Below, piece after piece: positions 14,042-45,768 of a DNA stretch of 64,000 nt. The notes below the pieces were generated by a model that saw only the letters and a list, made by a program, of their open reading frames with translations, was not told where the DNA came from and made no database searches. The first letter of the stretch is position 1. Each line of letters starts with the position of its first letter. The position numbers were made by a program, and so were the translations under genes. The DNA comes from an archaeon (GTDB lineage Archaea; Hydrothermarchaeota; Hydrothermarchaeia; JALTZZ01). The DNA lies in NCBI GenBank assembly GCA_027051165.1, contig JALTZZ010000036.1, forward strand, positions 5,050-69,049. Direction: 5' to 3'.

Positions 14042-14043
14042 TT

Positions 14044-14337: not shown

Positions 14338-14348
14338 TATATATTCAC

Positions 14349-16268: not shown

Positions 16269-16732
16269 GTTCCCTCCTCCTTATCTCTTAGCTCTGCTTC
16301 AGCAAATCTTTTCATCCAATTTAAAAGAGCGATTATTTCTTTAGTAACCTGAAAAACTTCGATAGATGATGTATTTTCATCAATTATCCAGTTTAGAATG
16401 TCTTTATTTTGTTTAAATTTTTTATTGAACCAACCGTTTATATGGTCATAGAGCAGCTTATATGCTTTTTTATCATCACCTAATTTTTGAAAAGCCTCTC
16501 TTTCTGGATCTTGTATGTCACTTCGTTTTAATTTATCTAAGTGTTTTTTGAATTCTGCCTCAAATTTTGATTTATAAAAGGCTAATGTATTTCCCAAGCC
16601 GTTTACTTGAATATACGTTGAGGCTTTTTTGACATACGATTTGTATTTATCTTCGAGATTAATGTCCCCCTTCACTTCCTGAATGCATCCCCAAGCATAT
16701 CTTGCCCTTTCCTGTTCAAGACTTCTTAGCAT
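16265..16732 (-). CDS. cmr5: Type III-B small subunit Cmr5
   Basis: LEQERARYAW, IQVNGLGNTLAF, LLNWMKRFAEA. ATG 16732 follows a GGAGG-like RBS. Confidence 0.9.
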   Translation of the reverse strand: MLRSLEQERARYAWGCIQEVKGDINLEDKYKSYVKKASTYIQVNGLGNTLAFYKSKFEAEFKKHLDKLKRSDIQDPEREAFQKLGDDKKAYKLLYDHINGWFNKKFKQNKDILNWIIDENTSSIEVFQVTKEIIALLNWMKRFAEAELRDKEEGT

Positions 16733-17720: not shown

Positions 17721-17722
17721 TT

Positions 17723-22619: not shown

Positions 22620-22748
22620 AGCACAATAACCTCCTATAAGTCTATACTTGCACATCAAAGTATAAAAATTTTACTTTTAAATTATTAAACAAATTCAAAT
22701 TAATTATAAATAAATGATAAAAATGGGTTTAAAATTAAAAATATAATA

Positions 22749-31460: not shown

Positions 31461-32411
31461 ATGAAAAAATATTTTGTGGTAATGCTTCTAATTTCGATAA
31501 GTCTTTCATGCCTGAGAGGGGGTGCAGAAAGTTCTGAACAACTGCCGCATCAGAAAGCTTTTTTCAGCATAAATAATAAAGGGAAATATATTTTTGTAGG
31601 AACAGACAGCGGCATTGAAGTTTATAAATTTCAAAACGGAACATTGATTCGTATTTGCTCTAAGGAGTTAAATGCAACCGTGCACGATATAGAAATTTTT
31701 AGTGACTATGCTGTATTGTCCCTTGGTAGCAGCGGCATTGCAATAGGGAATATAAGCATGTTTATTGAAAATCCATATAACTACAGCTTCAAAATAATAA
31801 ATATAAATAACAACATACTTGACGCGGAGATTTATAAAAATTACATACTTGCTGGCGGGTTTATAGGAAATAAGATATATGTTTTTGATTTTGGTGGAAG
31901 AAACATTCTAAACATAACAATACCAGAGTATGGGTATGTGAGGAGGATAAAATCTATAGACGATGAAATATATGTGGCTGATTTTACTGGCGGTGTTTAT
32001 AAGCTGAATATATTTACAGACTACGGATTTTATTTTATGATAACAAAGCATTTTGAAACAAGCGGTGTAGCATATGATGTCGAAAAATTTGATGATAGAA
32101 GAATTATTGTTGCATGTTCATTAAAAGGTTTGGATGTTGTTAACAGCGAAAACGGGTCTCTGGAAAAGAATATTCCGGTAAACGGGTATGCAATACTAAT
32201 AAAGAGATACGGAGATAAGTTCTACATAAGCTTGGCTACTGGAGGACTGCTTGTAATAGATAGGGACATGTTTAAAATCTATAAAACAAAAGGAAATATA
32301 CTTGACTTTGTAGTTTTAGAAAATAAAACAGCTATAATTGCTGATTATTACCACCTTTCACTTCTTGATTTAACAACGGGGGAGGTGAGGAGTTATGAAT
32401 GTAAGGTGTAA
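31461..32411 (+). CDS. Exported (probable lipoprotein) beta-propeller, LVIVD-like repeats
   Basis: Signal peptide with Cys (ISLSCLRG); repeated units IFVGTDSGIEVY, IYVADFTGGVYKL, FYISLATGGLLVID, IIADYYHLSLLD. Confidence 0.65.
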   Translation: MKKYFVVMLLISISLSCLRGGAESSEQLPHQKAFFSINNKGKYIFVGTDSGIEVYKFQNGTLIRICSKELNATVHDIEIFSDYAVLSLGSSGIAIGNISMFIENPYNYSFKIININNNILDAEIYKNYILAGGFIGNKIYVFDFGGRNILNITIPEYGYVRRIKSIDDEIYVADFTGGVYKLNIFTDYGFYFMITKHFETSGVAYDVEKFDDRRIIVACSLKGLDVVNSENGSLEKNIPVNGYAILIKRYGDKFYISLATGGLLVIDRDMFKIYKTKGNILDFVVLENKTAIIADYYHLSLLDLTTGEVRSYECKV

Positions 32412-33828
32412 AATAATAATCATAATAGCATTGGTTGTTTATATCACGATTTTTGGAATATTTTACTATATCGCTAAATCGCAGGAGAAGCAGCTTACAA
32501 ACGTTTTAAAAGAGCAGGCAAAGGGAATTGCACAGTCAATTAAACTTGTAAGATACTGGGCTGCGGAAAATAGGGAACTTATAGTTCCAGTTCCAGCTAA
32601 GCTGACGTATGAACTTGCAGAGCTTTCCAACAAAAAATACAACTACAAAATTGGACTTAAATCGAATAAAATAAGGAATTATAAAAATGCTTTGAGTTCT
32701 GAGTTCGACTACAGAAGCTACTATGCATTTATGAATGGAAGAGATGAATACTACATGTTTTCGGATGGAAAATTTATGTATGCGGTTCCGTTGAAGGTAG
32801 AGGAGCCATGTTTATACTGTCATATAGATCAGGGGTATCGTGCAGGCGATCTACGAGGCATTCTCGTGGTTGAGCTTCCTATTGATGAAATAGAAAGGCT
32901 TAAACAGGAAAATAAGAGAAAAATCTTCCTTTTAGCTCTTTTCTCAGCTCTAATAGTTTCCGCATTTCTATATATACTTCTAAGCAGATTTGTTATTGAC
33001 CCGGTGTATAAGCTGAAAGATGTTGCGGAGGAAGTTATGAGGGGAAATTATGATGTTAGAATTAAAAAGAAAAGCGAAGATGAGTTTGGCATGGTATTTG
33101 AAGCCTTTGATAAAATGGTTAGAGAAATAAAGAAAAGAGAAGATGCTATAGTTAGAGCGGAGAAGCTTGCAACGATAGGGAAGATAACATCGGGAATCTC
33201 CCACCAGATAAACAATCCGCTTGCTAACATAATGCTCTACGCCCAGCTTCACAAAATGGAATGCAAGGATAAAAATACAATAAAGGTTCTTGACATAATT
33301 GAAAAAGAAGCAGAAAGAATAGCGAAAGTTGTTAGAAGCCTTTTGGAATATGCTAAAGAGAGGAAAATCAAAAAGAAAATAGTAAAGCTGAGCGACGTAA
33401 TAAACAGTGCATTGGAAATTTTAAGTCCGCTGATGAAGAATATTACTCTCGTAAAAGATTTGAACGACAAAATATATGTGAATGCGGACTTTATAAAGCT
33501 CAGAGAAGCTATTTTAAACATTGTAATTAACGCAATAGAAGCTGTTTCTAATAAAAAAGATGCAAAAATCGTTATAAAGACCTATGTTGATGCATCAAAC
33601 AGCTCGCAGAGGGCAGTGATAGAAGTATCGGACAACGGAATTGGAATTCCGGAGAGCCACTTATCAAAGATTTTTGATCCTTTATTCTCAACGAAAAAAG
33701 ATGGAACTGGTTTAGGATTGGCTATAACTTACGAAATAATAAAGGATCATGGGGGAAATATTAAGGTTGAAAGCAAGGTTGGTGCGGGAACGAAATTTAT
33801 AATAGAACTTCCGATGGTGGTATTATGA
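32395..33828 (+). CDS. Membrane sensor histidine kinase with extracytoplasmic heme-c (DUF3365-like) sensor, HAMP, HisKA and HATPase_c
   Basis: Two TM helices flank PLKVEEPCLYCH..GYRAGDLRG; HAMP KSEDEFGMVFEAF; H-box ISHQINNPL; N, G1 (DNGIGI), F and G2 (GTGLGL) boxes. Confidence 0.9.
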   Translation: MNVRCKIIIIIALVVYITIFGIFYYIAKSQEKQLTNVLKEQAKGIAQSIKLVRYWAAENRELIVPVPAKLTYELAELSNKKYNYKIGLKSNKIRNYKNALSSEFDYRSYYAFMNGRDEYYMFSDGKFMYAVPLKVEEPCLYCHIDQGYRAGDLRGILVVELPIDEIERLKQENKRKIFLLALFSALIVSAFLYILLSRFVIDPVYKLKDVAEEVMRGNYDVRIKKKSEDEFGMVFEAFDKMVREIKKREDAIVRAEKLATIGKITSGISHQINNPLANIMLYAQLHKMECKDKNTIKVLDIIEKEAERIAKVVRSLLEYAKERKIKKKIVKLSDVINSALEILSPLMKNITLVKDLNDKIYVNADFIKLREAILNIVINAIEAVSNKKDAKIVIKTYVDASNSSQRAVIEVSDNGIGIPESHLSKIFDPLFSTKKDGTGLGLAITYEIIKDHGGNIKVESKVGAGTKFIIELPMVVL

Positions 33829-34451
33829 CCAAGAAGATTTTGGTTGTGGAGGACGATCAGAATCTTAGGAATGGGTTGGAGATGCTGCTTAAAACAAGAG
33901 GTTATGAAGTAAAGACCGCAGAAAATGGTGCAAAGGCTTTGGATATGCTAAGGAAAGAGGATTTCGATTTAATAATTGCAGACTTAATAATGCCAGAGCT
34001 TGACGGCATGGAGCTATTAAGAATTGCAAGGAAGATGTGTCCGCATACAAGTTTCATCGTAATAACGGCTTATGGAACTGTGGAGAGTGCAGTTGAAGCT
34101 ATGAAGCTTGGTGCATGTGACTATATTCTTAAACCGTTTAAAATAGACGAGGTCTATTCGAAGGTTCTAAAAGCACTTGAGGAGGTAAAAATAAGATCCG
34201 AGAGAAGAGTTATTGACGAGTGTTCTTTTAAGTGTCTTTCAAATTCCATAAGAAGGTCTATTATAAGATTTTTATCGAAGAACGAGAAGGCACGCTTCGT
34301 GGATATAATGAACGCGGTTAACATTAAAGATTCAGCGAAGCTGAGTTTTCATTTAAAATTTTTAAAGAAGCACGGTGTTATAGATAAAGATGAAACCAAA
34401 TTTTATTATTTAACATCAAGAGGAAAAATGTTAGCAGAGCTTTTATCATAG
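33825..34451 (+). CDS. Response regulator, receiver + winged-HTH output domain
   Basis: ILVVEDD, DLIIADLIMP (phospho-Asp), ITAYG, KPF; C-terminal LSNSIRRSIIRFL..SAKLSFHLKFLKKHGVI..YYLTSRG. Confidence 0.88.
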   Translation: MTKKILVVEDDQNLRNGLEMLLKTRGYEVKTAENGAKALDMLRKEDFDLIIADLIMPELDGMELLRIARKMCPHTSFIVITAYGTVESAVEAMKLGACDYILKPFKIDEVYSKVLKALEEVKIRSERRVIDECSFKCLSNSIRRSIIRFLSKNEKARFVDIMNAVNIKDSAKLSFHLKFLKKHGVIDKDETKFYYLTSRGKMLAELLS

Positions 34452-34495: not shown

Positions 34496-34567
34496 TTTAC
34501 AAACTTGTAAATGCGGATTTCAAAAAAGAATATAAATAACTTTTATTAAAATTTAAAGTGGGGATGT
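34496..34567 (+). promoter_or_regulatory. Palindromic operator + BRE/TATA + RBS upstream of the octaheme nitrite reductase
   Basis: TTTACAA-AC-TTGTAAA (34496-34511), AAAAAAG followed by AATATAAATA, then AGTGGGGATG; paralogous to 37263-37333. Confidence 0.6.
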
Positions 34568-34570
34568 GGT

Positions 34571-36451
34571 ATGAGATACGGTGTGGTTGTTGTTTCTATG
34601 CTCTTGGCTATGGTAGTGATGCTTGGAACAGTAAGTGCAGCAGTTAAGGAACAGTGTAAAACATGTCATAGCGATATGTATGGCTTCTTGCAGGAGGGTA
34701 AGCACAAGACTCATGATTGCAGTCTATGCCATGGAGATTCTACAAAGCAGCTGCAGGATCACATGTCAAATCCAAAGAAAACAAAGCCTTCAATAAAACC
34801 GCTGGAAGAAGGACCTAAATTCTGTGGGCAGTGTCATGAAAAATACTATGAGCAGTACAAAGATATAAACTGGAAGTCTATTGCAAAAATTGAGAAGGCT
34901 AGCCCAGTAGGTAGAGCACCAGCATTTGATCTATTACTCCACAGATACGGATTCGTGTTCGAGCATGCTGAGCCAAGAAGCCATGTATTCATGCTACTCG
35001 ATCATGTGATCGTTGACAGGGGTTACAAAGGAAGATTTAGACTTAAGGACTACAGTCTATTTGTTCCGCCAGAAGGATGGGACGGTGACATAACACCGCT
35101 AATTGTTGATACAAAGAAGAACAATCCTTACAGTGGTAGAGCTGATGTGAAGGGTCTGAAACCATGGGTCGCTGGAGCTGGGAGCACTATATGTCTGCAG
35201 TGTAAGACAACTGATATGGTAGTTGGCTGGGAAACGATAAGCAAAGGTGGAAACAAGACCGGTTATGCAAAGTTCATGAGGTGGGGTAATGCAAAAACCG
35301 CGGAGCTTATAGCAGCGGGTAAGATAAAGAGATCTCTAAACTGCGTCCACTGCCACGATCCACACATGACAAAGATGAGAGTTATAAGAGATGCACTTAT
35401 AGAAGCGGTAAAGAAGAAAGGTCCATTCCCATACGATAAAGAAAAGAATGAAAAAGCTAAGAAGCTTTACAAGATAGTGGCATTCCCAAGCGTAAAGAAC
35501 AACTACAGAGAAATTATTGTATGGGATGCCGATGCTAAGGATCCAAAGCTAAACTGGCTAACGTGTGCGCAGTGCCACGTAGAGTATGAGTGCAACCCAG
35601 TTACAGATGTGAAGACGGATAAGAAAGTAAAGCATGAGGAAGATCCAAGGACAAACATATTCCCATGGGTAAACGTCAACGAAGTCTACGACTACTACCT
35701 CAAGGAAGTCGGTATCTACACATTTAAGCATGGTATCACAAAAGCTAAGCTTATAAAAGCCCAGCATCCAGAGGTTGAGGTATGGTGGGAAAGCAAGCAC
35801 GAAAAGAACAACGTTGACTGTATAGACTGCCACATGCCAGAGATCGATGGCATAGCGTTCCACTCGCCAAGAAGCCCACAAGATATAGGTGTTGATAAAA
35901 CATGTTTGAAGTGCCACAAAGAGTGGGATGTGGAGCAAGCTAACTACGTAATTGAGTCAATACAGGAATACAGTAAGGGTAAGATGAGAGACGCTGAGTT
36001 CCACCTATCAAGACTTGTTGACAGGATAAAGCTTGCCGAGCAGATAGGAGTTGATCCAGCGAAGATAGAAGAAGCGAGAGAATTGCATGCAAGAGCACAT
36101 ATACTATGGGAGTGGTGGACCGCTGAAAACAGCGACGGATTCCACGATCCAGATGAAGCTTGGCTAACGCTTGGCGAGGCTTCAAGACTCGCAGAGAAAG
36201 GCTGGAAGATGCTTGACGAAGAGATAAAGAAAAAGATGGAGGAGCTGCAGGCTAAAATAGAAAAAGCACCAGCTGAGAAGGTTCCAAAGGCTGAGGAAGT
36301 CGTTCCAAAAGTTGAGAAGCCGGCTCCAGAAAAGCCAGCAGAGGTAAAGCCACCAGCAGAAGAGAAGAAAGGCATCTGCGGTCCAACAGCTATTATAGCA
36401 CTTGCAATGCTACCTCTGGCTGGATACCTTGCTCTAAAGAGAAGAAGATAA
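34571..36451 (+). CDS. nrfA: Octaheme cytochrome c nitrite reductase (NrfA/TvNiR-type) with CGP-CTERM anchor
   Basis: Signal peptide; CKTCH, CSLCH, CGQCH, CLQCK (Lys-ligated active-site heme), CVHCH, CAQCH, CIDCH, CLKCH; LIKAQHPEVE; AENSDGFH; Pro/Glu/Lys linker then GICGPTAIIALAMLPLAGYLALKRRR. Confidence 0.9.
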   Translation: MRYGVVVVSMLLAMVVMLGTVSAAVKEQCKTCHSDMYGFLQEGKHKTHDCSLCHGDSTKQLQDHMSNPKKTKPSIKPLEEGPKFCGQCHEKYYEQYKDINWKSIAKIEKASPVGRAPAFDLLLHRYGFVFEHAEPRSHVFMLLDHVIVDRGYKGRFRLKDYSLFVPPEGWDGDITPLIVDTKKNNPYSGRADVKGLKPWVAGAGSTICLQCKTTDMVVGWETISKGGNKTGYAKFMRWGNAKTAELIAAGKIKRSLNCVHCHDPHMTKMRVIRDALIEAVKKKGPFPYDKEKNEKAKKLYKIVAFPSVKNNYREIIVWDADAKDPKLNWLTCAQCHVEYECNPVTDVKTDKKVKHEEDPRTNIFPWVNVNEVYDYYLKEVGIYTFKHGITKAKLIKAQHPEVEVWWESKHEKNNVDCIDCHMPEIDGIAFHSPRSPQDIGVDKTCLKCHKEWDVEQANYVIESIQEYSKGKMRDAEFHLSRLVDRIKLAEQIGVDPAKIEEARELHARAHILWEWWTAENSDGFHDPDEAWLTLGEASRLAEKGWKMLDEEIKKKMEELQAKIEKAPAEKVPKAEEVVPKVEKPAPEKPAEVKPPAEEKKGICGPTAIIALAMLPLAGYLALKRRR

Positions 36452-36482: not shown

Positions 36483-37226
36483 ATGAGTTTTAAACTTAAA
36501 CTAATAATAATCCTAATATCCTTTTCTATACTGCTGGTAGCATGCAATCTTTTCGAGAAAAATTCTAAGAAGAATTTTTATGAGGGATTCTACGAAGGAT
36601 ACATGCAGGGGTTATCTCAGGGTTATAAAGAGGGTTATGAACTTTCGTGCACAGAAAAAATATTTCCGGAGATCGTGAGAAAAGAAGGTGTAATAGTGAG
36701 AAAATTTGACGTTGGCGACTACATAGTAAATGTTAGAATAAGCACGAGAAAATACTTCTACTACAAATTTAAAGAAGAGGAAAATCTTTCCGAATACATT
36801 ACCCCAAATGAAAGCGAGATAAAGGAGCTTGCCTTAATTCTAAGAAAGCTCTATCCAGATGATGAGGATTTCGCAAGGATTTGCTTAAAAATAGTCCAGC
36901 AGATAAAGTATGAGGATGATATAACGGCTTTTAATGTGAAATTTCCGGTAGAAACGCTTGCCGAGGGAAGCGGAGACTGCGAGGACTTGGCAATACTCCT
37001 TGCCTCGTTGCTTAGAGCTGGTGGACTAAACGCAAGCCTCGTAGTTTTCGATGCCCATGTAGGGGCTGCTGTAAACCTTAAAAATTTAAGAAAAATACCA
37101 AAAGATGGAGCTTTCTTTCTTGAATACAATGGAAAAAAATTTTACTACTGTGAGCCACAGGAAAATTTCGATATCGGTGAAATGCCCAAAAAATATATAA
37201 ACAGCACTGCCAAGCTTTTGTTTTAA
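36483..37226 (+). CDS. Lipoprotein with transglutaminase-like cysteine protease domain
   Basis: LLVACN lipobox-like; GSGDCEDLAILLASLL, AHVGAAV, YYCEP (Cys-His-acid triad order). Confidence 0.68.
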   Translation: MSFKLKLIIILISFSILLVACNLFEKNSKKNFYEGFYEGYMQGLSQGYKEGYELSCTEKIFPEIVRKEGVIVRKFDVGDYIVNVRISTRKYFYYKFKEEENLSEYITPNESEIKELALILRKLYPDDEDFARICLKIVQQIKYEDDITAFNVKFPVETLAEGSGDCEDLAILLASLLRAGGLNASLVVFDAHVGAAVNLKNLRKIPKDGAFFLEYNGKKFYYCEPQENFDIGEMPKKYINSTAKLLF

Positions 37227-37337: not shown

Positions 37338-37898
37338 ATGAAGTTCAAAGTATTGGTGTTCTATGTTTTATTAGCCGTGTGTGTTGCGATGGGTAGTGCC
37401 TTCGCTCTGAGCAACGGTGCACCAGACTTAAAGTGTGCAAAGTGTCATAAGAACGTTGTTGGCACCGCTGATATAAAGATTTCTGGACTTCCAGAAAAAT
37501 ACAAGCCGGGCAAAGAGTATACAATTGAAATAGAGATTTTGAGTAGTGTAAAGAGCACGGGCTTTTCTCAGGGAGGTTTTGCCATAGAAGCCAGTGCTGG
37601 AGAGCTGAAAGTTGTTGATGAAAAAAATACACTAAAAAGTGGAAAATACGTTACCCATACTACTGAAGGTGCAGGAAAAAGAAAGTGGAAAGTTGTCTGG
37701 CAAGCTCCAGATAAGCCCGTTGAAGTTACGATAAGCGTTTCAGCCATAGCCTCTAACGGTGATGCATCTCCAGCAAACGATGCTATGGGAATGAAAACAG
37801 TAAAGATAAAGCCAGAGCTTCCATCAAAAACTCTGGGCTATCTTCTGATAATAATAGGAATAGGATTGCTTGTTTTTGCGATATTATATAAGGGGTGA
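37338..37898 (+). CDS. Membrane-anchored monoheme cytochrome c with Reeler-like (choice-of-anchor V-like) domain
   Basis: Signal peptide, CAKCH, GLPEKYKPGKEYTI, GGFAIEASAG, YVTHT, WKVVWQAP, ASNGD, C-terminal TM helix. Confidence 0.72.
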   Translation: MKFKVLVFYVLLAVCVAMGSAFALSNGAPDLKCAKCHKNVVGTADIKISGLPEKYKPGKEYTIEIEILSSVKSTGFSQGGFAIEASAGELKVVDEKNTLKSGKYVTHTTEGAGKRKWKVVWQAPDKPVEVTISVSAIASNGDASPANDAMGMKTVKIKPELPSKTLGYLLIIIGIGLLVFAILYKG

Positions 37899-37903
37899 TA
37901 TAG

Positions 37904-40900
37904 ATGGGTTTGACGAGAAGAGATTTTATTAGAGCAAGTGCCTTAGCTGCAGCTGCTGCGTGCATCGGTGCTGGTGGTTATTTAGCAACCAGAAAAGAGG
38001 AGATTGCAAAAGTGCTACCGATAAGAACGAAGGACTTTCCAGTTGGACAGTGCAGATTCTGTGCGGTTGGATGCACAACCGTAGCAGAGGCTGAGGTTGA
38101 TGAGTCTGGAAAGATAGTCAAGGTCATTGCAATAAAGGGAGACCCTACAAGTCCAGTTAATAGGGGTGTTCTCTGCACGAAAGGATTTTATTTGAACAAA
38201 GCCTTAGCCTATGAAAAAAGACCAAAGAAGCCACTTATAAGAAAGGAATGGATAAATCCAGCAACAGGAAAACCTGATTTGAAAAATTCACCGAGAGTAA
38301 CTAAAGGAGTAACAACAAAAGACCCAGAGGGATTAAAGCCGAGCGAAGTTGACCTTCAGGAGAACTTCGTTGAGGTTGACTGGGAAACAATACTTGAGTT
38401 TATAGCGGATGCAATGGAAATGTGCATAAATGAATACGGAATCTTCTCGATAGGCTACTACGGAAGCGGTCAGCTTGGAACCGAGGAAACCTATGTTATG
38501 AACAAGGCTTTAAAAGGTGGCTTGCCCAACAACCACATAGAAGGTCAGCCAAGGATGTGCATGGCAAGTGCCGTTGTTGCCTATCTTCAAACGTTTGGCA
38601 GAGACGAGCCTTATGGATGCTTTGACGATATAGATGTCCCAGACCCGGATTATGGAGTTCATGCAGATACGTTCTTTATAATGGGAAACAATACCGCAGA
38701 AGCGCATCCAGTTCTTTTCAACAGAATTGCAACTCTAAAACATAAAAATCCAGAAAAAATAAAAATAATACTTGCAGATCCGAGAAAAACGAGAAGCGGA
38801 ACAGTAGCTGATTTATGGCTGCCGTTCATGTCGGGCTCCAATCTAAGCCTGCTGAACGCAATGCTGCACTACATAGTCCTTGAGGCGAACAATATAAAGC
38901 GTGTTGTTGATGTAGATAATGCAAAAGTTGAGCTCAACGACGGCAGAGTAGTTCATCTAAAGGATATAAACTGGAAGTATGTTGATATAAAATTCATAAA
39001 AAGACACTGTAACTTTGGAATAGTAACTCAGGTTCAGAAGGTATGGGTTTTAAACAAGTATGGCGGAACGAGAGGAGAAGTTTGGGATCCAGCATATAAA
39101 TTAGGAACAAAAGCACAGTTCTTCCCGGATCCGAGAAAAGCGGATAAATATAAATCAGAAGAAGAAATAGAAAAGGACTGGTGGAAAGGATTCGCAATGT
39201 ATATAAAGTTCTTAGAAGACTATAAGCCGGAGAAAGTTGCTGATATTGTATTCAGGGGAGAAACTCCGCTGAAGTATGACAGGGCAAAGGGTGAATGGGT
39301 GGAAATAGATCAGGCAGAGGCTATCAGGCTTGCGGCTAAGTGGTTCGCAGAGGGATATACAGTTAGCCTATGGTGCATGGGCGTAAACCAAAATGTTCAG
39401 GGTGTCTGGATAAACAGGGCTATACATGCTCTGCATCTAATAACTGGAAAAGCTGTAAAGCCGGGTAGACATGCGTTTAGCCTAACTGGTCAGCCAAACG
39501 CGTGCGGCGGTATAAGAGCTCCCGGAGCTCTCTGCCATGCACTGCCCTATGGAAGGGTAGTCTTCGATGGTGTAAACAGAAAAGAGGTTGAGGACATCTG
39601 GAAAAAGAACCTTGCAAACTATCTAAGAAAGAAGGGATACAGCGAAGCTGAGATTCAGAAAGAAATTGAAAAGATAAAGATACACGGAAAACCGGGACCG
39701 CATACAATAGAGATGTTCAGAAGATATGGTGCAGGGCAGATAAAGATAATGTTCATTTCTACCGTGAACCCCGGGCAGAGCCTTCCTTATGCGTATGTAT
39801 ATAGAAAGGCAATGGCAGGTGCAGAGAAGAGTAAACCATGGCCTCTTACAATAACTCTCGAAGCATTCCCGAGCACAACTACGCTTGTTAGCGACATTGT
39901 TCTACCAGCTGCAAGCTGGTATGAGAAATCGTTTACATATGGAAATACGGAAAGAAGATATCAGTATATAAGGAAGATCATGGATCCACCATCCAAGGAA
40001 ATGCTTCCGGATTCAGTGATATTTGCAATGATATGGAGAAAAATGGAAGAAAGAGGAATAATACCAAAAGGCTTTATATCAATGTTCTGGCCTGAGGAAT
40101 ATGGAGAAGACTGGATTAAAAAGACGATAGAAAACTGCCACAAGCCTGAGTGGATAGATAAGTTCACAGAGAACCTGTGGAACGAGCTTAGAGAGTTGAG
40201 CAATGAAACACCATACGATCTCAGCGGAATAACAAGAAAGAGACTCAAAGAAAAGGTATCTGGATACAGAATGCCGATGCCAGAAGAATACGACACGGAT
40301 CCTGATGTAAGGGCAAGATATGACAAATATCAGTCAAGAATCACCTATGCATATCCATACGATCCGCATATAGAGAAGCATACAAAAAGGGCTCTTGAAA
40401 ACTTGAAGAAGTGGGCACCGCTATATGCAAGATGGGTTGAGAAAAATATAGAAGAAACTAAGAACGATTTAGAATATAAGAGAAAAGAAAAGCTTCCAGA
40501 TAACTACTGGATAAGCTTCTATGCAGCATGCAAGCCAGTATATAAACGTAAACAGCTTCCAGATGGAAGCAAGGTTCCTATAATAGACTGCAGAGCTATA
40601 ATATGGTCAAATCCGCATTGGGCTACATATTACGATGAGAAGGAGCAGAAATTCAAGATATTTAAGAAAGTGAAGATAATAAAGAAGAAGTTCAATCCCG
40701 AAAAGGCATACAAAGGTCTCTCAGCAGGACCGCTTCCATTTGACAAAATTGAGGAGTTTGAAGCAGATGTTATAGGAGATCCAGAGAGAGACCTAAATGC
40801 AATGTTTACCCTTGTTCTAAGTCCGCCAGAAGTGCCTGGAGTTAAAATTGCCTACAGAAAGCCAGATGGAAGCGAGATCGTAATAATGGATGCGAGAGAC

Positions 40901-41311
40901 TATCCATACGGCGTATGCACGGGCAGAGTAATAGAGCACTGGCACACAGCAACGATGACTAATAGGGTGCCGGAGATAAACAGAGTCCTACCAGAAGCTT
41001 ATGTCGAAATAAACGTGAAACTTGCAGAAAAGCTTGGAATAAAGGATGGGGATCCAGTTATACTCGAATCACCGAGAGCAAAAATAGAGCTTAAAGCTAA
41101 GGTTCTCGATCCAAAGAAGGCATTAGGTGGTCCAAGATACGATTACCTCTTTGTTCCGTGGTTCGATGAGAAGAAGCTTATAGGATTCCTACTAAGGGAT
41201 AACTTCGATCCATTCAGCTTCCAAGCGGACTACAAGATGGCAGCAGTTAAGCTATACAAAGGAACCCTTCAGAGAAAACAGGCTATAGCAAAGCCCTTAA
41301 CGGTAGCTTAA
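37904..41311 (+). CDS. napA: Periplasmic-type nitrate reductase catalytic subunit (NapA-like molybdoenzyme, 1135 aa)
   Basis: Tat signal TRRDF; CRFCAVGC...C [4Fe-4S]; PRMCMASAV (Mo-ligating Cys); NTAEAHP; SLTGQPNACG; CTGRVIEHWHT. Confidence 0.88.
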   Translation: MGLTRRDFIRASALAAAAACIGAGGYLATRKEEIAKVLPIRTKDFPVGQCRFCAVGCTTVAEAEVDESGKIVKVIAIKGDPTSPVNRGVLCTKGFYLNKALAYEKRPKKPLIRKEWINPATGKPDLKNSPRVTKGVTTKDPEGLKPSEVDLQENFVEVDWETILEFIADAMEMCINEYGIFSIGYYGSGQLGTEETYVMNKALKGGLPNNHIEGQPRMCMASAVVAYLQTFGRDEPYGCFDDIDVPDPDYGVHADTFFIMGNNTAEAHPVLFNRIATLKHKNPEKIKIILADPRKTRSGTVADLWLPFMSGSNLSLLNAMLHYIVLEANNIKRVVDVDNAKVELNDGRVVHLKDINWKYVDIKFIKRHCNFGIVTQVQKVWVLNKYGGTRGEVWDPAYKLGTKAQFFPDPRKADKYKSEEEIEKDWWKGFAMYIKFLEDYKPEKVADIVFRGETPLKYDRAKGEWVEIDQAEAIRLAAKWFAEGYTVSLWCMGVNQNVQGVWINRAIHALHLITGKAVKPGRHAFSLTGQPNACGGIRAPGALCHALPYGRVVFDGVNRKEVEDIWKKNLANYLRKKGYSEAEIQKEIEKIKIHGKPGPHTIEMFRRYGAGQIKIMFISTVNPGQSLPYAYVYRKAMAGAEKSKPWPLTITLEAFPSTTTLVSDIVLPAASWYEKSFTYGNTERRYQYIRKIMDPPSKEMLPDSVIFAMIWRKMEERGIIPKGFISMFWPEEYGEDWIKKTIENCHKPEWIDKFTENLWNELRELSNETPYDLSGITRKRLKEKVSGYRMPMPEEYDTDPDVRARYDKYQSRITYAYPYDPHIEKHTKRALENLKKWAPLYARWVEKNIEETKNDLEYKRKEKLPDNYWISFYAACKPVYKRKQLPDGSKVPIIDCRAIIWSNPHWATYYDEKEQKFKIFKKVKIIKKKFNPEKAYKGLSAGPLPFDKIEEFEADVIGDPERDLNAMFTLVLSPPEVPGVKIAYRKPDGSEIVIMDARDYPYGVCTGRVIEHWHTATMTNRVPEINRVLPEAYVEINVKLAEKLGIKDGDPVILESPRAKIELKAKVLDPKKALGGPRYDYLFVPWFDEKKLIGFLLRDNFDPFSFQADYKMAAVKLYKGTLQRKQAIAKPLTVA

Positions 41312-41340: not shown

Positions 41341-42087
41341 ATGAAAAAAGGAATAAAAAGAAGAGATTTTCTAAAATTTTATATTCTTTCTCCGCTTTTA
41401 TTTGGATTTAACACTAAAAAAGATGAAGAGCTTGAAGATGTTGTAAGACCACCTGGTGCAAGCAGAGGATTCTCAAGAAAGTGCGTAAGGTGCTCCGCAT
41501 GTGTCAGCACATGCAGGAATGTCGGCAGATACGCCATAACGCTTGCAGGGCTTTCAAAAGGCATAAGGAACCTTGGAACGCCAGTTGTAGAGAACATGAG
41601 GGAATACCCATGCGATCTCTGCATGGAGTGCACAAAAATTTGTCCAACAGGGGCTTTAAAAGAGATACCAAAGGAAAAGGTGAAGATGGGCGTTGCGGTT
41701 ATAGATATAGACCTGTGCTTGGGGTGGAACTCCGATGTCTGCCTCTCGTGTAGCAAGGTTTGCCCATTTGCAAACGATGTTTTTGAATTTAGAAGCTCAG
41801 AATGGGGAAATCAGCCATATATAAAGCCAGATAAATGTGTAGGCTGCGGTTTGTGTGTTAAAGCGTGTATTGTGAGGAAAACAGCCGTAGTTGTATATCC
41901 GCCCAAAAAATACAGAGAAATAGAGAGGGAGTATCTGATGTATCTTGACTATATTGAAAGCCTTCCCAATCTAAACAGATACAAGGTTGTATACGAGGAC
42001 AACCTGCCGAGAATACTTGAAATAGGTATAGAAAGGGAAAGGGAGGAAAGGGTTCTGAGAGAGCTAAAAAAGAGGAAGGTGAAGTAA
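41341..42087 (+). CDS. napG: NapG/MauM ferredoxin-type protein
   Basis: RRDF, VRPPGA, CVRCSACVSTC, CDLCMECTKICPTGAL, GVAVIDIDLC, CVGCGLC. Confidence 0.9.
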   Translation: MKKGIKRRDFLKFYILSPLLFGFNTKKDEELEDVVRPPGASRGFSRKCVRCSACVSTCRNVGRYAITLAGLSKGIRNLGTPVVENMREYPCDLCMECTKICPTGALKEIPKEKVKMGVAVIDIDLCLGWNSDVCLSCSKVCPFANDVFEFRSSEWGNQPYIKPDKCVGCGLCVKACIVRKTAVVVYPPKKYREIEREYLMYLDYIESLPNLNRYKVVYEDNLPRILEIGIEREREERVLRELKKRKVK

Positions 42088-42830
42088 TGATCAGCAGAGC
42101 AAGAAGGCTTGTGCTTGCCTTAATATTAGCTCTATTTATCCTTCAGTTCTTTGGTATAGAAATTTTGAAGGGAAACCTTGTAAGCTCGATATTTTTAAAT
42201 AAAATCTATCTTTTTGATGTTTTTTCTGGTATAGAAACAATTTTATCTTCTAAACGATTGGAGATTAATATAATCCTCGGAATACTCACGGTAACCTTCA
42301 TATACGTTATATTCGGAAGAGCGTTCTGTGGATGGATATGTCCGCTTGATGCGGTTTTTTCATATATAAAAGGAAGGGAGAAAAATAGAAAAACCTTAAA
42401 TCCAGCCTATCCAGCGGTATTTTTTCTCACAGCTTCGCTACTGCTCTCACAACCGATATTTGCATCATATATCTCACCAGTATCGAACTTCTTTAGAATA
42501 ATATACTCCCCATTTCTTGGAAGCATTTCTCTGCTCATTTTCTCTGGAGCAATGATCCTTCCGATAATTCTTATGGAAATTCTTGAAAAAAGATTTTGGT
42601 GCAAAAATATTTGTCCAATAGGATTTATCTATGGAAAATTTAATAAAATAAGCTTAATAGGAATAAAAATAGATAAAAATGCATGCATAGACTGCAAAGC
42701 CTGCGTGCAAGCATGCCCTATGGATGTTGAGATAAAAAAATACAGCACCAGAATAAGATCATCGAACTGCATTCTCTGCGGGATATGTGTCGAAAAATGC
42801 GAGAAAAATGCACTAAAATTTGGGGGGTGA
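42087..42830 (+). CDS. napH: NapH membrane polyferredoxin (quinol dehydrogenase)
   Basis: GRAFCGWICP, RFWCKNICPIG, CIDCKACVQACP, CILCGICVEKC; several TM helices. Confidence 0.9.
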   Translation: MISRARRLVLALILALFILQFFGIEILKGNLVSSIFLNKIYLFDVFSGIETILSSKRLEINIILGILTVTFIYVIFGRAFCGWICPLDAVFSYIKGREKNRKTLNPAYPAVFFLTASLLLSQPIFASYISPVSNFFRIIYSPFLGSISLLIFSGAMILPIILMEILEKRFWCKNICPIGFIYGKFNKISLIGIKIDKNACIDCKACVQACPMDVEIKKYSTRIRSSNCILCGICVEKCEKNALKFGG

Positions 42831-43087: not shown

Positions 43088-44230
43088 ATGATAAAAATCA
43101 TAGGTGTAGCCCACGTAAGTGAGGAAAGTGTAAGAGAAGTAGAAGAGACTATAGAAACTCTAAAACCAGATGTTGTTGCTGTTGAGCTCTGTGAAACAAG
43201 ATATAGAGGGTTATTAGAAAATGAAAGAAAAATACCTGTTTTTGATTTAATAAAGAAAGGAGAATCAACAACACTGCTTGTTAACATCCTCCTTTCATAC
43301 TTTCAGAAGAAAATAGGTAGAGAGCTTGGAACAAAGCCGGGCAAGGAAATGCTTGCCGCAATAGAAGCAGCTAAGAGGGTTAATGCAGAAGTTGCACTGA
43401 TAGATAGAGATATAAAGATCACGCTTAAAAGAGCTTTGGCAAAAATGGGTTTTTTAGAGAAAATAAAGATTTTATTTGATTTGTTTGCATCAATGGGAAT
43501 AAGCAGGGAGGAAATTGAGAAGGAACTGAAAAAAATAAAGTCAGAGGACTACATAGCAAAGCTCCTACAAGAGCTTAAAAACATCTCTCCAAATGTTTAC
43601 AAGGTGATCGTTGATGAGAGGGATATGTTCATGGCATACAGGCTTCTTGAGCTGAGCAGAAAATATGAAAAGATAGTTGCAGTAGTTGGTGCCGGGCATA
43701 AAGCAGGAATAGAGTTCTATTTAAATAATCCTGATAAAATAAATGAAAAAAAGATAAAGGAGATTGTAGAAGTCCCTAAAAGAAAAATTACATTCACAAA
43801 AATGATAAAATATGGTTTTCCGTTGGCAATTTTAGCTATATTTATACTTGCATTCATTAAAGGTGTGGACATGAAAACGCCAATGAAATACTGGATTATA
43901 AACAACTTTGTCCCAACATTCATAGCAGTAGTTGCTGCGAGGGGACACATATTCTCAGCCCTTGCCGGAGCTCTCTCCTCCCCCATTACTTCTCTTTTAC
44001 CGTTTATAGGTGCTGGATGGGTAGCTGGAGCAGTTGAGCTTAAGGTTGGCAAAGCTACGGTTGAAGATGTGGTAAAGGTTTTTAATGTTGAAAGCTTTAA
44101 GGAACTTTATTCAAACAAAGCATTTAGGGTTGTGCTTGTAACAGCGCTCGGCAACTTAGGCTCATTAATAGGAACGCTCATATCTATACCAACGGTAATA
44201 CTACCGCTTATAAAGGCATTGGGTGGTTAA
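43088..44230 (+). CDS. TraB/GumN-family protein
   Basis: IIGVAHVSEES, VAVELC, PGKEM, IDRDIKITLKR, IVDERDMFMA, VVGAGH; C-terminal TM helices. Confidence 0.88.
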   Translation: MIKIIGVAHVSEESVREVEETIETLKPDVVAVELCETRYRGLLENERKIPVFDLIKKGESTTLLVNILLSYFQKKIGRELGTKPGKEMLAAIEAAKRVNAEVALIDRDIKITLKRALAKMGFLEKIKILFDLFASMGISREEIEKELKKIKSEDYIAKLLQELKNISPNVYKVIVDERDMFMAYRLLELSRKYEKIVAVVGAGHKAGIEFYLNNPDKINEKKIKEIVEVPKRKITFTKMIKYGFPLAILAIFILAFIKGVDMKTPMKYWIINNFVPTFIAVVAARGHIFSALAGALSSPITSLLPFIGAGWVAGAVELKVGKATVEDVVKVFNVESFKELYSNKAFRVVLVTALGNLGSLIGTLISIPTVILPLIKALGG

Positions 44231-44612
44231 AATGCGTGTTGAAGTATTCATAAAAACGTATCTGTTGTGTGTAGCAATAATGTTTATAATATTCACGATA
44301 TTCGACCTTAAGCTTAACAGAGCAATCTTTTTATTTTTGGCAATGACTTTTTTATATCCATTCATATTTAAAATAGGAATAAGGCTGAGAGGGATAAGAA
44401 AAGGTGATATTGTAGTGGTTAGTATAGAAAATAAGGATAAATATGGAATATTTATACAGAAAACTCTTGCAAAAGCCCTTAGCAATGCAAAGCTTAATGA
44501 AATTGTGGAGATTGAAATAAACGGAAGTAGAGGAAAAGCTGTAGTTAAAAACTTGGGTGGAATATTGATGCCTCCTATAGTTGAGCTGCTATACACAGAG
44601 GTGAAGAAATGA
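44223..44612 (+). CDS. NfeD-like membrane protein with OB-fold
   Basis: Two TM helices plus a beta-rich C-terminal domain; coupled to traB and the M50 protease. Confidence 0.5.
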   Translation: MVKMRVEVFIKTYLLCVAIMFIIFTIFDLKLNRAIFLFLAMTFLYPFIFKIGIRLRGIRKGDIVVVSIENKDKYGIFIQKTLAKALSNAKLNEIVEIEINGSRGKAVVKNLGGILMPPIVELLYTEVKK

Positions 44613-45175
44613 GGTTTACATTTAGGGAGATTAAGGAGCTTCTGATATCAACAATTATAATAACGTTCTGCTTTGCATGGGTTCACAGAGATTTACCAAT
44701 AAACTTTGGTGTGCTCTACATTTACATGTTCATAGTAGTTGGCAGTGCTTTTGCTCTTCACGAGCTTGGGCACAAGATAAGTGCTCAGAGATTTGGACAC
44801 TACGCAGAGTATAGAATGTGGGAGTTTGGCTTGCTGATAGCATTTGTCCTTGCGGTAACGGTAAACTGGTTCTTCATAGCTCCGGGCGCTGTCTATATTA
44901 TACCGAGCTATAGGGGAATGTCGAGAGAGGAGAACGGAATAATCTCCGTAAGTGGTATTATTGTAAACATAAGCCTTTCTCTGCTCTTCTATATAGGATA
45001 TCAATTAACAGGGCTGTGGTTCCTTGGATATGGGGCGATGATAAATGCATTCTTAGCTTTCCTAAACCTCTTGCCAATACCCCCATTAGATGGATCAAAG
45101 GTTCTTACATGGAATCCAATTGCGTGGATCGTTCTAATTGCAGTATCCTTTATGATAACATCAAAGCTCTGGTAA
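44609..45175 (+). CDS. Site-2 protease (M50) family
   Basis: HELGH zinc motif, APGAV, FLNLLPIPPLDG. Confidence 0.9.
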   Translation: MRFTFREIKELLISTIIITFCFAWVHRDLPINFGVLYIYMFIVVGSAFALHELGHKISAQRFGHYAEYRMWEFGLLIAFVLAVTVNWFFIAPGAVYIIPSYRGMSREENGIISVSGIIVNISLSLLFYIGYQLTGLWFLGYGAMINAFLAFLNLLPIPPLDGSKVLTWNPIAWIVLIAVSFMITSKLW

Positions 45176-45182
45176 GCGGTGT

Positions 45183-45275
45183 GCTGACCTCCTCCCCGCC
45201 CTAAAGGGCGAGGGTTCTCATAGGGAACATCTCACTCAGCCGCCTCACGACGGCTTCACGAGGCAGGTTGGTGTC
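45183..45275 (-). mobile_element. Isolated IS200/IS605-family (tnpB-type) right end, omega-RNA-like 3' scaffold
   Basis: Minus strand reads ...CCTGCCTCGTGAAGCCGTCGTGAGGCGGC...GAACCCTCGCCCTTTAGGGCGGGGAGGAGGTCAG; hairpin CGCCC-TAAA-GGGCG at 45197-45210. Confidence 0.65.
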
Positions 45276-45768
45276 ATCGGGCTGGGTCAGAGCAGCCGAA
45301 AAAGCCGGGATAAAGAAGAGGATTCATCCCCACATATTCAGACACTCCAGAGCCACCTTCTTGGCTAATCATTTCACAGAGGCACAGATGTGCGAATATC
45401 TTGGCTGGGTTAAAGGGTTACCAATGCCACAGGTTTATGTTCATCTGAGCGGTAGGGATGTTGACAAGGCAATTTTAAAGCTTCACGGCATTGAGATAGA
45501 GGAAGAAGACAAGCCAAAGCCAAAGAAGTGTCCAGGGTGCAGATTGGCAAATCCGAGCATCGCAAGATTTTGCATAAGGTGCGGAGCAATCTTGGATATG
45601 GAAACTGCCTTAGAGCTTGAGGTTAAGGAGAACGAAATGACTAAGATATTCTTAGAAAATCCAAAGCTTATGGACAAAGCCATTAAGCTCGCTCAGATGC
45701 TTGAACTGATAGAGAAGATTGGCTGGGATAAGGTTAAGCAGTTAGCGGAGCAGATGGGAGGAAAATGA
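45268..45768 (+). pseudogene. Tyrosine recombinase/integrase, C-terminal fragment
   Basis: AAEKAGIKKRIHPHIFRHSRAT, LGW, YVHLS (catalytic Tyr), zinc ribbon CPGC..CIRC. The N-terminal domains and first Arg are missing. Confidence 0.8.

Follow-up and report, generated by a model that had tools for sequence, protein, structure and literature searches.

A predicted TvNiR-type octahaem nitrite reductase with a CGP-type C-terminal tail in a Hydrothermarchaeota-affiliated archaeon

How a multihaem reductase might be held at the surface of an archaeon, and where it takes its electrons from, is the question raised by a gene in the 64,000-nt stretch of archaeal DNA analysed here, the whole of which we call the window. 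The gene encodes a candidate octahaem nitrite reductase (ONR) ending in a tail of the CGP type, and it lies in a run of genes collected in Table 1. The joint reading that we consider likely is that of a TvNiR-type ONR, tethered by its CGP tail, supplied with quinol electrons via NapH and NapG without NrfH, and controlled by the kinase and regulator encoded upstream.

Table 1. Features of the ONR locus, in window coordinates (L numbers denote loci)
Feature	Coordinates	Strand	Evidence
316-aa conserved gene, probably LVIVD-type beta-propeller	31461..32411	+	PF08309 LVIVD in the L172/L173 homologue
Sensor histidine kinase	32395..33828	+	Pfam: Tll0287-like periplasmic domain, HAMP, HisKA, HATPase
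Response regulator, winged-helix (ArsR/DUF7347)	33825..34451	+	Response_reg E = 3e-30, DUF7347 E = 2.5e-10; synteny conserved
Perfect palindrome TTTACAAACTTGTAAA	34496..34511	.	Left half-site ATTATTTACAA kept in L082
Archaeal TATA-like box AATATAAATA, preceded by A-rich BRE-like stretch	34529..34538	+	Sequence
Ribosome-binding site GGGGATGTGG	34560-34569	+	Sequence
Sec signal peptide of ONR (residues 1-23)	34571..34639	+	MRYGVVVVSMLLAMVVMLGTVSA, then A; cleavage after VSA judged by eye
Octahaem catalytic core, TvNiR-type (residues 27-549)	34649..36217	+	2ot4 match, haem motifs, catalytic residues
Stalk (residues 550-599)	36218..36367	+	Short helix-like segment, then Glu/Lys/Pro/Ala-rich linker
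CGP-type C-terminal sorting signal KGICGPTAIIALAMLPLAGYLALKRRR and stop codon	36368..36451	+	TIGR04288 match, conservation, other carriers
N-terminally anchored transglutaminase-fold (LapG-like) candidate cysteine peptidase	36483..37226	+	Cys166 in GSGDCED
Monohaem (CAKCH) Reeler / choice-of-anchor V protein, C-terminal TM helix	37338..37898	+	NF041895 E = 4.6e-27 (above cutoff), Pfam Reeler
TAT-exported NapA-like molybdopterin nitrate reductase, 1135 aa	37904..41311	+	NF010055 E = 2e-128, below equivalog cutoff; TAT signal
NapG-like periplasmic polyferredoxin, RRDFLK TAT motif	41341..42087	+	NF007012 NapG E = 2e-30
NapH-like membrane quinol dehydrogenase subunit	42087..42830	+	TIGR02163 NapH/MauN E = 1.4e-40, Fer4_5, 4 TM helices

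The ONR open reading frame, 34571..36451 on the plus strand, starts with ATG and encodes 626 aa; the minus-strand frames 35558-35938 and 35944-36375 within it are set aside as shadow ORFs. Its haem motifs are C29KTCH, C50SLCH, C85GQCH, C208LQCK, C258VHCH, C332AQCH, C417IDCH, and C445LKCH, in the order of 3 CxxCH, 1 CxxCK, and 4 CxxCH (HHHKHHHH) that is found in 85 of the 85 family members examined. By phmmer, residues 27-549 align with chain residues 12-515 of 525 in the Thioalkalivibrio nitratireducens enzyme TvNiR (PDB ID: 2ot4; also 2zo5) at E = 1.1e-105, and PDB ID: 8rv0 is matched at E = 8e-97. Because of the 2ot4 score together with the match to Pfam Cytochrom_C552 (E = 4e-48), the haem pattern is not a product of chance. 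Arg150 (VDR), Tyr339 and Cys341 (VEYECNP), and His399 (KAQHPE) align with Arg131, Tyr303, Cys305, and His361 of TvNiR, as counted along the alignment; Arg, Tyr, and His are the catalytic residues, Cys305 is the partner in the Tyr-Cys bond, and the catalytic His sits between haem sites 6 and 7. The octahaem layout claimed in the preliminary description is thus borne out. Homology to TvNiR is full length, with haem order and catalytic residues shared, but identity is only ~40%, and the window protein is archaeal and carries a 50-aa stalk and a CGP tail. Judged by its sequence, the gene product is an octahaem cytochrome c nitrite reductase of the TvNiR type, exported by Sec, for which reduction of nitrite with 6 electrons to ammonium is predicted.

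The haem order is an ONR criterion in Saghai et al. 2023 (PMC10716430). Six-electron reduction of nitrite to ammonium and hexameric assembly are further marks of the class. Supplementary Table 1 of Saghai et al. lists onr in 2 Hydrothermarchaeota assemblies, so the statement that this type is known from bacteria needs widening. In published genome papers on Hydrothermarchaeota, Nap/Nar and multihaem cytochromes are reported, and a nitrite reductase is not. The same reaction is expected as for the NrfA-NrfH system, to which the five C-terminal haems and the CxxCK active site are homologous and which is likewise membrane-associated; NrfA structures in the PDB match the window ONR at E ~1e-21. 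NrfA has five haems versus eight, however, and is tethered by a quinol-oxidising partner where the window ONR would rely on its own C-terminal signal, and the scores against the NrfA equivalogs lie far below their cutoffs (NF008339, 99.1 bits versus 595; TIGR03152, 78.8 bits versus 692.5).

Beyond the catalytic core, the protein has the Pro/Glu/Lys-rich stalk, CGP, TM helix, and basic end that had been noted from the DNA alone (residues 550-626, with the Cys at 603). The 50 stalk residues include 13 E, 12 K, 8 P, and 7 A, with no Thr and no Ser; in two orthologues (P0003/P0004) a coiled-coil-like linker takes the place of the stalk. The tail then runs KGICGP, hydrophobic helix TAIIALAMLPLAGYLAL, KRRR, stop, which is a tripartite signal at the extreme C-terminus, and its C, G, P, mid-helix Pro, and Tyr are invariant across 6 ONR orthologues. 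Stalk and tail, about 77 extra residues, are confined to archaeal ONRs and are missing from 78 of 78 bacterial homologues. The family that this resembles is CGP-CTERM (TIGR04288), for which the scores are 16.8 bits with the 34-aa tail and 17.6 bits with the 27-aa tail, short of the 21-bit cutoff. Haft 2023 (bioRxiv 10.1101/2023.06.07.544157) describes CGP-CTERM as exclusive to Thermococcales (Thermococcus, Pyrococcus, Palaeococcus), with Thr/Ser-rich upstream regions.

The way to ask if the tail stands alone is to look for it on other proteins of the lineage, and they are there. An exhaustive tail profile search finds 42 representative proteins with E <= 1e-3 among 1.84e9, always with the match no more than 9 residues from the C-terminus, and ~35 of these 42 tail-bearing clusters are unrelated to ONR. 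The carriers include cytochromes, rhodaneses, PQQ/YVTN propellers, a subtilase, LamG, and transglutaminase proteins, with the Pfam families cytochromes c, Rhodanese, PQQ_2, Peptidase_S8, Laminin_G_3, Transglut_core, and EB_dh. TIGR04288 is the top family for 43 of 46 tails, with a best E = 6e-7, and is almost the sole family matched. One archaeal contig has the identical tail on two different proteins within 21 kb, one carrier cluster includes RLG58985.1, labelled [Candidatus Hydrothermarchaeota archaeon], and all traceable carriers come from Hydrothermarchaeota-type archaea. The strict pattern KGICGP[TS]A[IL], scanned genome-wide, matches archaeal MAGs only (6 genome loci), with 4 metagenome loci besides, a yield of DNA too small for locating the sorting enzyme. 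A word-indexed protein search with the tail profile returned one 74-aa fragment and missed known positives, and hence is uninformative on absence. A tail-based locus search whose pattern fell on the linker recovered ONR orthologues only.

The variant consensus is KGICGP[TS]A..x.A.LP...Y.L.RRR, with 24-27 residues from the Cys as against the 20-residue TIGR04288 model. With the Thermococcales system (TIGR04288; MrtA NF040590) it shares the tripartite signal, Cys-Gly-Pro on a TM helix, an Arg cluster, and the many unrelated exported proteins; it differs in its Hydrothermarchaeota-type hosts, its longer tail, its own consensus, and a linker that is Glu/Lys/Pro-rich or coiled-coil, not Thr/Ser-rich. 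Thr/Pro-rich linkers do occur on some other carriers (e.g., P0131, P0140). Of the CGP-CTERM assignment made earlier, the tripartite signal stands, and it recurs on unrelated proteins; the TIGR04288 cutoff is not reached, the tail being a non-Thermococcales variant. Because the same extreme C-terminal tail is on 42 clusters mostly unrelated to ONR, we take it to be a real lineage-specific CGP-CTERM variant, and by its distribution and sequence a general surface-sorting signal outside Thermococcales. As an addition to known biology, such a lineage-wide signal is a modest extension.

The tail would hold the ONR at the cytoplasmic membrane, on its outer side, and the stalk would extend the enzyme into the space under the S-layer; the protein would be tethered in this way because the archaeon lacks an outer membrane that could keep a periplasmic enzyme in place. 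The preliminary description had called for a cognate archaeosortase, and that candidate is rejected, as the literature predicts instead the CPBP/Rce1-like archaeomyxosortase MrtA, with Cys lipidation and helix removal only predicted even for Thermococcales (bioRxiv 10.1101/2023.06.07.544157). Taking Haft's model of sorting signals with a Cys as an analogy, we put about even chances on Cys603 being lipid-modified and the helix being removed by a CPBP/Rce1-like MrtA-type protease; otherwise, the helix itself would be the anchor. A scan by the motifs EExxxR, FxxxH, and HxxxN/D plus TM helices, which did catch the CPBP gene in a Thermoplasmatota locus (L159), detects a CPBP/MrtA-like gene neither in the window nor across the ~330 kb sampled from Hydrothermarchaeota-type archaea (a sample smaller than whole genomes). 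Two other ideas for a sorting enzyme fall away: the genes for TraB and M50 peptidases that come after napH are ONR-linked only in the window lineage (L082) and not in L002-L004, and the LapG-like gene is not near other CGP-tailed proteins (L086-L088).

The strongest alternative is a plain, uncleaved C-terminal TM anchor, in which KGxCGP...P...Y would serve helix capping or packing, a disulfide, or a metal contact, with no sorting enzyme and no lipid. That the sampled DNA holds no MrtA/CPBP gene, that the ONR tail is below the TIGR04288 threshold, that the adjoining Reeler cytochrome has a simple TM helix, and that the literature searched yielded no experimental proof of cleavage or lipidation for any CGP-CTERM protein all favor it. 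Against it, Cys-Gly-Pro directly before the helix is near-invariant in 46 tails on unrelated proteins whose linkers vary freely, an invariant Cys would be unneeded in a plain anchor, and both the architecture and the best-matching family are those of Cys-type sorting signals with a predicted cognate protease family. We regard the plain anchor as possible but on the doubtful side.

Concerning the electron supply, the suggestion that NapGH or the Reeler cytochrome is the donor is well supported, because the order ONR-Reeler-NapA-NapG-NapH recurs in nine bacterial loci (L016, L026, L028, L031, L038, L059, L064, L071, L073). These are Nitrospirota/Thermodesulfovibrionia and Dissulfurispiraceae MAGs, and the module there is without NrfH. 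Identities of the window proteins to this module are 56-58% full-length for NapA, 43-49% for NapG, 33-39% for NapH, and 38-49% for the Reeler monohaem protein. The bacterial clusters share with the window both the gene order and an unusually long NapA (~1130 aa), but their ONRs are only ~40% identical to the archaeal one, and the archaeal cluster differs by C-terminal membrane anchors on ONR and Reeler and by an additional LapG-like gene that follows the ONR. Archaeal Reeler cytochromes have a C-terminal TM helix, which the nine bacterial homologues between ONR and NapA do not. No NrfH/NapC-type tetrahaem gene is found in the 64,000 nt of the window, where the ONR is the sole ORF of at least 100 aa with more than one CxxCH; an nrfH elsewhere in the genome is possible. 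The contrast with NrfH that had been drawn earlier is misplaced, since linkage to NrfH is not the general rule for TvNiR-type ONRs: of 77 bacterial ONR loci, the majority are free of haem genes within 4 kb, and a small tetrahaem neighbor occurs in just 5. As the window has none and such neighbors are rare in bacterial ONR loci, NrfH is rejected as the partner. Electrons from the quinol pool would pass through NapH and NapG to the ONR, probably via the membrane-anchored monohaem Reeler cytochrome, which may also serve NapA, and the cluster would carry nitrate to nitrite to ammonium without NrfH.

A different main role can be proposed, with the enzyme serving to detoxify nitrite, hydroxylamine, or NO, or to reduce sulfite, and not for respiratory nitrite ammonification. 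Hydroxylamine and sulfite are further in vitro substrates of TvNiR. The ONR locus of L002-L004 is without nap genes, so the Nap coupling is lineage-specific; related genomes have an IhOCC/HAO-like octahaem protein in the same regulated slot; the haem-based sensor of the kinase upstream is of a kind typical for detecting small molecules or redox state; and nitrate is, according to the literature, scarce in the Juan de Fuca crustal fluids that these archaea inhabit. On the other hand, in the window and L082 the ONR is in one co-directional cluster with NapA, NapG, and NapH, that linkage is repeated in the nine bacterial loci, and the active site with CxxCK and Arg/Tyr/His is of the nitrite-reductase type. 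A non-ammonifying main role is in our judgment unlikely.

Upstream of the ONR, the 316-aa gene precedes the kinase gene in every archaeal locus, its product being 70% identical in L082 and 23-25% in L002-L004; Pfam on the window protein itself gives a weak CPSF_A match only. The Tll0287-like domain of the kinase carries one CxxCH at about residue 139, and the kinase gene adjoins the octahaem gene in all archaeal loci. The palindrome TTTACAAACTTGTAAA is a candidate operator for the response regulator, as suggested by its sequence, and the block AAAAAGAATATAAA and the GGTGGGGATG site are both kept in L082. The haem-sensor kinase and response regulator would control expression of the cluster.

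New here are two observations: a LapG-like gene follows CGP-tailed octahaem enzymes, and a stalk-and-tail cassette is common to the ONR and an HAO-like enzyme. LapG itself is a transglutaminase-like cysteine protease of the periplasm, and its action frees the adhesin LapA. The LapG-like product matches Pfam Transglut_core at E = 8e-7 and LapG NF045674 at E = 1.7e-4, and its AF2 model (pLDDT 78.6) has LapG 4u65/4fgq as top Foldseek matches at E = 5e-4. It shares with LapG the GxGDCED(F/L)A catalytic-Cys motif, the fold, and an extracytoplasmic site beside a surface-tethered candidate substrate; the similarity is weak, however (E 5e-4 to 0.05, TM 0.36-0.47), the N-terminal membrane helix and Tyr/Gly/Glu-rich segment are missing from LapG, and the window has no LapD-like partner. 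In all contexts visible, this rare gene comes immediately after a CGP-tailed octahaem gene.

In L172-L174 the regulated slot is filled by octahaem proteins that match PDB ID: 4qo5, which we take to be IhOCC, at E = 1e-54, and that end in a stalk and CGP tail homologous to those of the ONR. Alignment of the L173 HAO-like protein with the window ONR, to whose stalk its own is homologous, is confined to the signal peptide and the C-terminal 82 residues. IhOCC is described as an octahaem cytochrome c of Ignicoccus hospitalis that is associated with the membrane (Parey et al. 2016, as given in PMC8840924). Like the window ONR, it is a membrane-associated octahaem member of the HAO/NrfA superfamily from an archaeon; its core differs in being HAO-like with 8 CxxCH. 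A tentative proposal, which we hold to be rather unlikely, is that CGP-tailed octahaem N-oxide reductases and the outward-facing LapG-like peptidase are a dedicated pair, the peptidase acting on the Lys/Glu/Pro-rich stalk so that the enzyme is released, matured, or cross-linked to the envelope, with stalk-anchor, signal peptide, and regulators as a fixed cassette into which cores of ONR or IhOCC/HAO-like type are swapped.

The host of the ONR is an uncultured thermophilic hot-vent archaeon affiliated with Hydrothermarchaeota. The window contains TiaS, an archaeal-specific enzyme whose best genome matches are in archaeal MAGs, the top two being S141 bin.124 (57%) and a Hydrothermarchaeota MAG (54%), and ONR relatives with 68-88% identity are found in Hydrothermarchaeota MAGs in the same synteny. 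Mis-assembly of a bacterial gene into an archaeal contig, through a chimera or contamination, is highly improbable. In its favor, the nearest homologues outside the small clade are bacterial, and identity of the nap genes to those of Nitrospirota is 56-58%. Against it, several archaeal MAGs and samples repeat the gene order on contigs independent of one another; TiaS, HgcC RNA, and TATA/BRE elements of archaeal type are present in the window; only archaeal copies have the tail and the TM-anchored form of Reeler; and the GC content is continuous over the cluster. In a neighbor-joining tree, the window ONR is in a long-branch clade with two tail-less sequences, P0005 and P0006. P0005 is the closest tail-less relative with a readable contig, 68% identical to the window ONR, and that contig is bacterial, its neighbors there being genes for a T9SS-tailed protein and for an outer-membrane barrel of the Alginate_exp type. 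As the tree is midpoint-rooted without an NrfA outgroup, we claim no direction of transfer between bacteria and archaea. The ONR and Reeler anchors, from their sequence distribution, appear to have been gained in the archaeon.

The identification of the gene as an ONR linked to NapAGH makes the abundant subseafloor Hydrothermarchaeota candidate nitrate ammonifiers, not incomplete denitrifiers. The CGP-CTERM variant on dozens of redox and surface proteins in a second archaeal lineage widens a system thought confined to Thermococcales, and that lineage offers an independent phylogenetic profile for the MrtA hypothesis. The strict pairing with the LapG-like gene and the shared stalk-tail cassette lend themselves to testing; if the proposal for them is true, pair and cassette would be an enzyme-specific control system for surface tethering with no described archaeal counterpart. 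Overall, the locus illustrates how a periplasmic respiratory module of double-membraned bacteria may be adapted to a cell that lacks an outer membrane, the two soluble cytochromes having each acquired a C-terminal anchor.

The octahaem nitrite reductase (ONR) gene encodes a typical Sec signal peptide (MRYGVVVVSMLLAMVVMLGTVSA|A) and eight haem c motifs, at C29, C50, C85, C208 (CLQCK), C258, C332, C417 and C445, which is exactly the layout of three CxxCH, one CxxCK and four CxxCH read in the preliminary description. By phmmer against PDB sequences, the best match is PDB 2ot4, the enzyme TvNiR of Thioalkalivibrio nitratireducens, along with many other TvNiR entries (E = 1e-105, residues 27-549); a second ONR structure, 8rv0, scores E = 8e-97, and pentahaem NrfA structures reach only about 1e-21, in the C-terminal part. 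In the alignment to TvNiR, Arg150, Tyr339 and His399 correspond to the catalytic Arg131, Tyr303 and His361, and Cys341 to Cys305, the residue bonded to that Tyr. Scores against the NCBIfam NrfA equivalogs are far under their cutoffs. The TvNiR-type assignment thus stands, and judged from its sequence the enzyme is an ONR and not an NrfA; within the ONR family it is unremarkable, and only its host is unusual. The preliminary observation holds up, and most of its interpretation is right. Minus-strand ORFs within the gene are dismissed as shadow ORFs. About 20 bp 5' of the TATA-like box there is a perfect 16-bp palindrome, TTTACAAACTTGTAAA, whose left half is kept in L082, the closest relative locus; the adjoining response regulator may use this palindrome as its operator.

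As to the host, the window encodes CofE and TiaS, the latter known as an archaeal-specific tRNA-modifying enzyme, with best genome matches in the archaeal MAG S141 bin.124 (57%) and then a Hydrothermarchaeota MAG (54%). It also holds an HgcC RNA and a type III-B CRISPR module. ONR relatives 68-88% identical are found in the Hydrothermarchaeota-type MAGs JdFR-17 'Pyrohabitans', S141_78, M_MaxBin.100, S141 bin.124 and GCA_054046405.1, and outside this set the nearest homologues are bacterial ONRs with no more than 44% identity. Since Saghai et al. 2023 (PMC10716430, Suppl. Table 1) count onr in two Hydrothermarchaeota assemblies, the archaeal ONR had been catalogued, though not discussed; the genome papers on Hydrothermarchaeota mention Nap, Nar and multihaem cytochromes, and no nitrite reductase. 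The CRISPR module occupies the window's lowest-GC part (0.30-0.33 vs about 0.37-0.40). Elsewhere, a 1.45-kb stretch with the HgcC RNA and a 166-aa ORF is missing from L082, where the dCTP deaminase gene comes 12 nt after the M50 peptidase gene; this stretch is possibly left over from an integrated element.

Features of the window and of the comparison loci
Feature	Coordinates	Strand	Remarks
Type III-B CRISPR-Cas module	12809-22658	minus	
Csm6 HEPN	12809-14041	minus	
Cas10/Cmr2	18868-21459	minus	
RAMP	21444-22658	minus	
Sensor histidine kinase	32395-33828		Tll0287-like periplasmic domain with CxxCH
Palindrome	34496-34511		
A-rich BRE/TATA-like element and ribosome-binding site GGGGATGTGG	5' of ONR		both kept in L082
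ONR	34571..36451	+	626 residues; ORF confirmed
ONR stalk and tail	36200-36448		aligned with the HAO-like protein
LapG-like transglutaminase-fold gene	36483-37226		N-terminally anchored
Monohaem Reeler (choice-of-anchor V) protein	37338-37898		C-terminal TM helix
NapA-like reductase	37904-41311		TAT-exported, 1135 aa
TraB-family protein, 129-aa ORF, M50 peptidase	43088-45175		
HgcC RNA	45171-45300	minus	
Stretch missing from L082	45176-46624		
166-aa ORF	45268-45768		phage-integrase C-terminal fragment and zinc ribbon
IhOCC/HAO-like 8x CxxCH protein	8396-9952 of L172-L174 (GCA_002010065.2)		also L092, L175; E=1e-54 to PDB 4qo5
YVTN beta-propeller, L086	10001-11296		tail GKGICGPTALLALAMLPLGAYRLYRRRR
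Rhodanese, L086	20576-21295		tail GKGICGPTALLALAMLPLGAYRLYRRRR

The cluster runs from a probable LVIVD-type propeller through a haem-sensor histidine kinase, a winged-helix response regulator and ONR to the LapG-like protein, Reeler protein, NapA-like reductase, NapG and NapH, in an order identical in L082. The kinase is probably a haem c-based sensor because of the CxxCH in its periplasmic domain; kinases like it (24-34% identity) flank bacterial ONR loci. In the archaeal ONR loci L002-L004, the propeller-kinase-regulator context is kept and the nap genes are not. The genes after napH, which include a minimal 188-aa site-2 protease-like M50 membrane peptidase, keep their order in L082 and are unlinked to ONR in L002-L004. 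The series ONR-Reeler-NapA-NapG-NapH is present in nine bacterial loci (Nitrospirota, Thermodesulfovibrionia, Dissulfurispiraceae), with identities to the window of 56-58% for NapA (full length), 43-49% for NapG, 33-39% for NapH and 38-49% for Reeler. The Hydrothermarchaeota napA has been proposed as an 'early-evolved form' (PMC6775978), but the identity to Nitrospirota ONR-Nap clusters makes lateral transfer the better fit for the window NapA, which is ~300 aa longer than canonical NapA. NrfH, against which the preliminary description had set the tail as a tether, is not the expected partner in this family, because a small tetrahaem gene adjoins ONR in only 5/77 bacterial loci; no NrfH-type gene is found within the window. 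NapGH or the Reeler cytochrome had been named as donor candidates, and the synteny with the nine bacterial loci makes NapGH plus Reeler the best-supported candidate electron route to ONR.

The catalytic core is followed by a 50-residue segment with a high content of E, K, P and A, and then by KGICGPTAIIALAMLPLAGYLALKRRR. Taken alone, the tail has TIGR04288 (CGP_CTERM) as its sole NCBIfam match, at 16.8-17.6 bits and so under the trusted cutoff of 21 bits. In 6 orthologue tails the C, G, P, mid-helix Pro and Tyr are invariant, while the linkers differ completely, being Pro/Glu/Lys-rich in some and coiled-coil-like in others. The decisive test is an exhaustive hmmsearch of the tail profile against 1.84e9 representative proteins, which gives 42 matches at E<=1e-3, every one lying <=9 residues from the C-terminus. 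Some 35 of these are on proteins unrelated to ONR, namely mono- and multihaem cytochromes, an HAO-like protein, rhodaneses, PQQ/YVTN propellers, a subtilase, and LamG, transglutaminase and EB_dh domains. Their consensus is KGICGP[TS]A..x.A.LP...Y.L.RRR, and TIGR04288 is matched by 43/46 such tails with a best E of 6e-7. One carrier cluster contains an NCBI protein labelled Candidatus Hydrothermarchaeota, and on L086, an archaeal contig encoding GatD/GatE, a propeller and a rhodanese within 21 kb bear an identical tail; these two stand among NnrS, ScdA_N, DUF1858 and NosL-like genes. A scan for KGICGP[TS]A[IL] in 596 Gb of representative genomes finds archaeal MAGs only (two contigs from one MAG), and about 0.9 Mb of sequence belonging to other archaeal lineages has no such tail. 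From the unrelated proteins and the archaeal carriers it follows that the tail is a true shared sorting signal. Haft gives CGP-CTERM as exclusive to Thermococcales (bioRxiv 10.1101/2023.06.07.544157), whereas this variant is found outside them; the signal itself was known, though it is still uncharacterised, and what is new is the variant in this lineage.

Membrane anchoring of ONR is well supported. For CGP-CTERM, Haft's proposal is that the Cys is first lipidated and the protein then cleaved, and the signal is paired with MrtA, an archaeomyxosortase of the CPBP/Rce1-like intramembrane protease type (same preprint). On that assignment the cognate archaeosortase suggested earlier is not supported, and MrtA is the predicted partner instead. 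A motif scan, which did detect one CPBP in a Thermoplasmatota locus, covered the window and some 330 kb from related loci and gave no CPBP-like ORF in either, and the literature searched reports no experimental evidence for CGP-CTERM processing. We rate cleavage and lipidation of this tail as evenly balanced.

The LapG-like gene is rare (seven clusters among 5.8e9 proteins) and, wherever context is visible, lies directly 3' of a CGP-tailed octahaem gene. The window and the loci L082, L001 and L003 have ONR as this partner, whereas L172-L174, L092 and L175 have an IhOCC/HAO-like protein. The AF2 model (pLDDT 78.6) has only a modest likeness to LapG/transglutaminase-fold proteases (E=5e-4, TM 0.36-0.47). 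A role as general sorting enzyme is rejected because other CGP-tailed genes have no LapG-like neighbour. Significant alignment between ONR and the HAO-like protein is confined to the signal peptide and the last 82 residues, with stalk and tail 52% identical (E=2e-20) and the catalytic cores unrelated, and in related Hydrothermarchaeota the HAO-like gene occupies the same propeller-kinase-regulator slot. It looks as if the export-and-anchor cassette is fixed and catalytic cores are exchanged within it.

All 78 bacterial ONRs examined stop shortly past the core. In a neighbour-joining tree the six tailed archaeal ONRs form one clade, whose sisters are two tail-less homologues, P0005 and P0006 (65-68% identity), the latter on a 4 kb contig. 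The host of P0005 is a bacterium with two membranes, since on its 515-kb contig the gene adjoins those for a T9SS C-terminal-domain protein and an Alginate_exp outer-membrane barrel. The tree is midpoint-rooted without an outgroup and therefore does not orient the transfer. The nine bacterial Reeler homologues, also between ONR and NapA, end after the domain, and the archaeal ones add the C-terminal TM helix, so that the archaeon has acquired two anchors. With this helix on Reeler and the tail on ONR, both soluble cytochromes of the bacterial periplasmic module are membrane-anchored in the archaeon.
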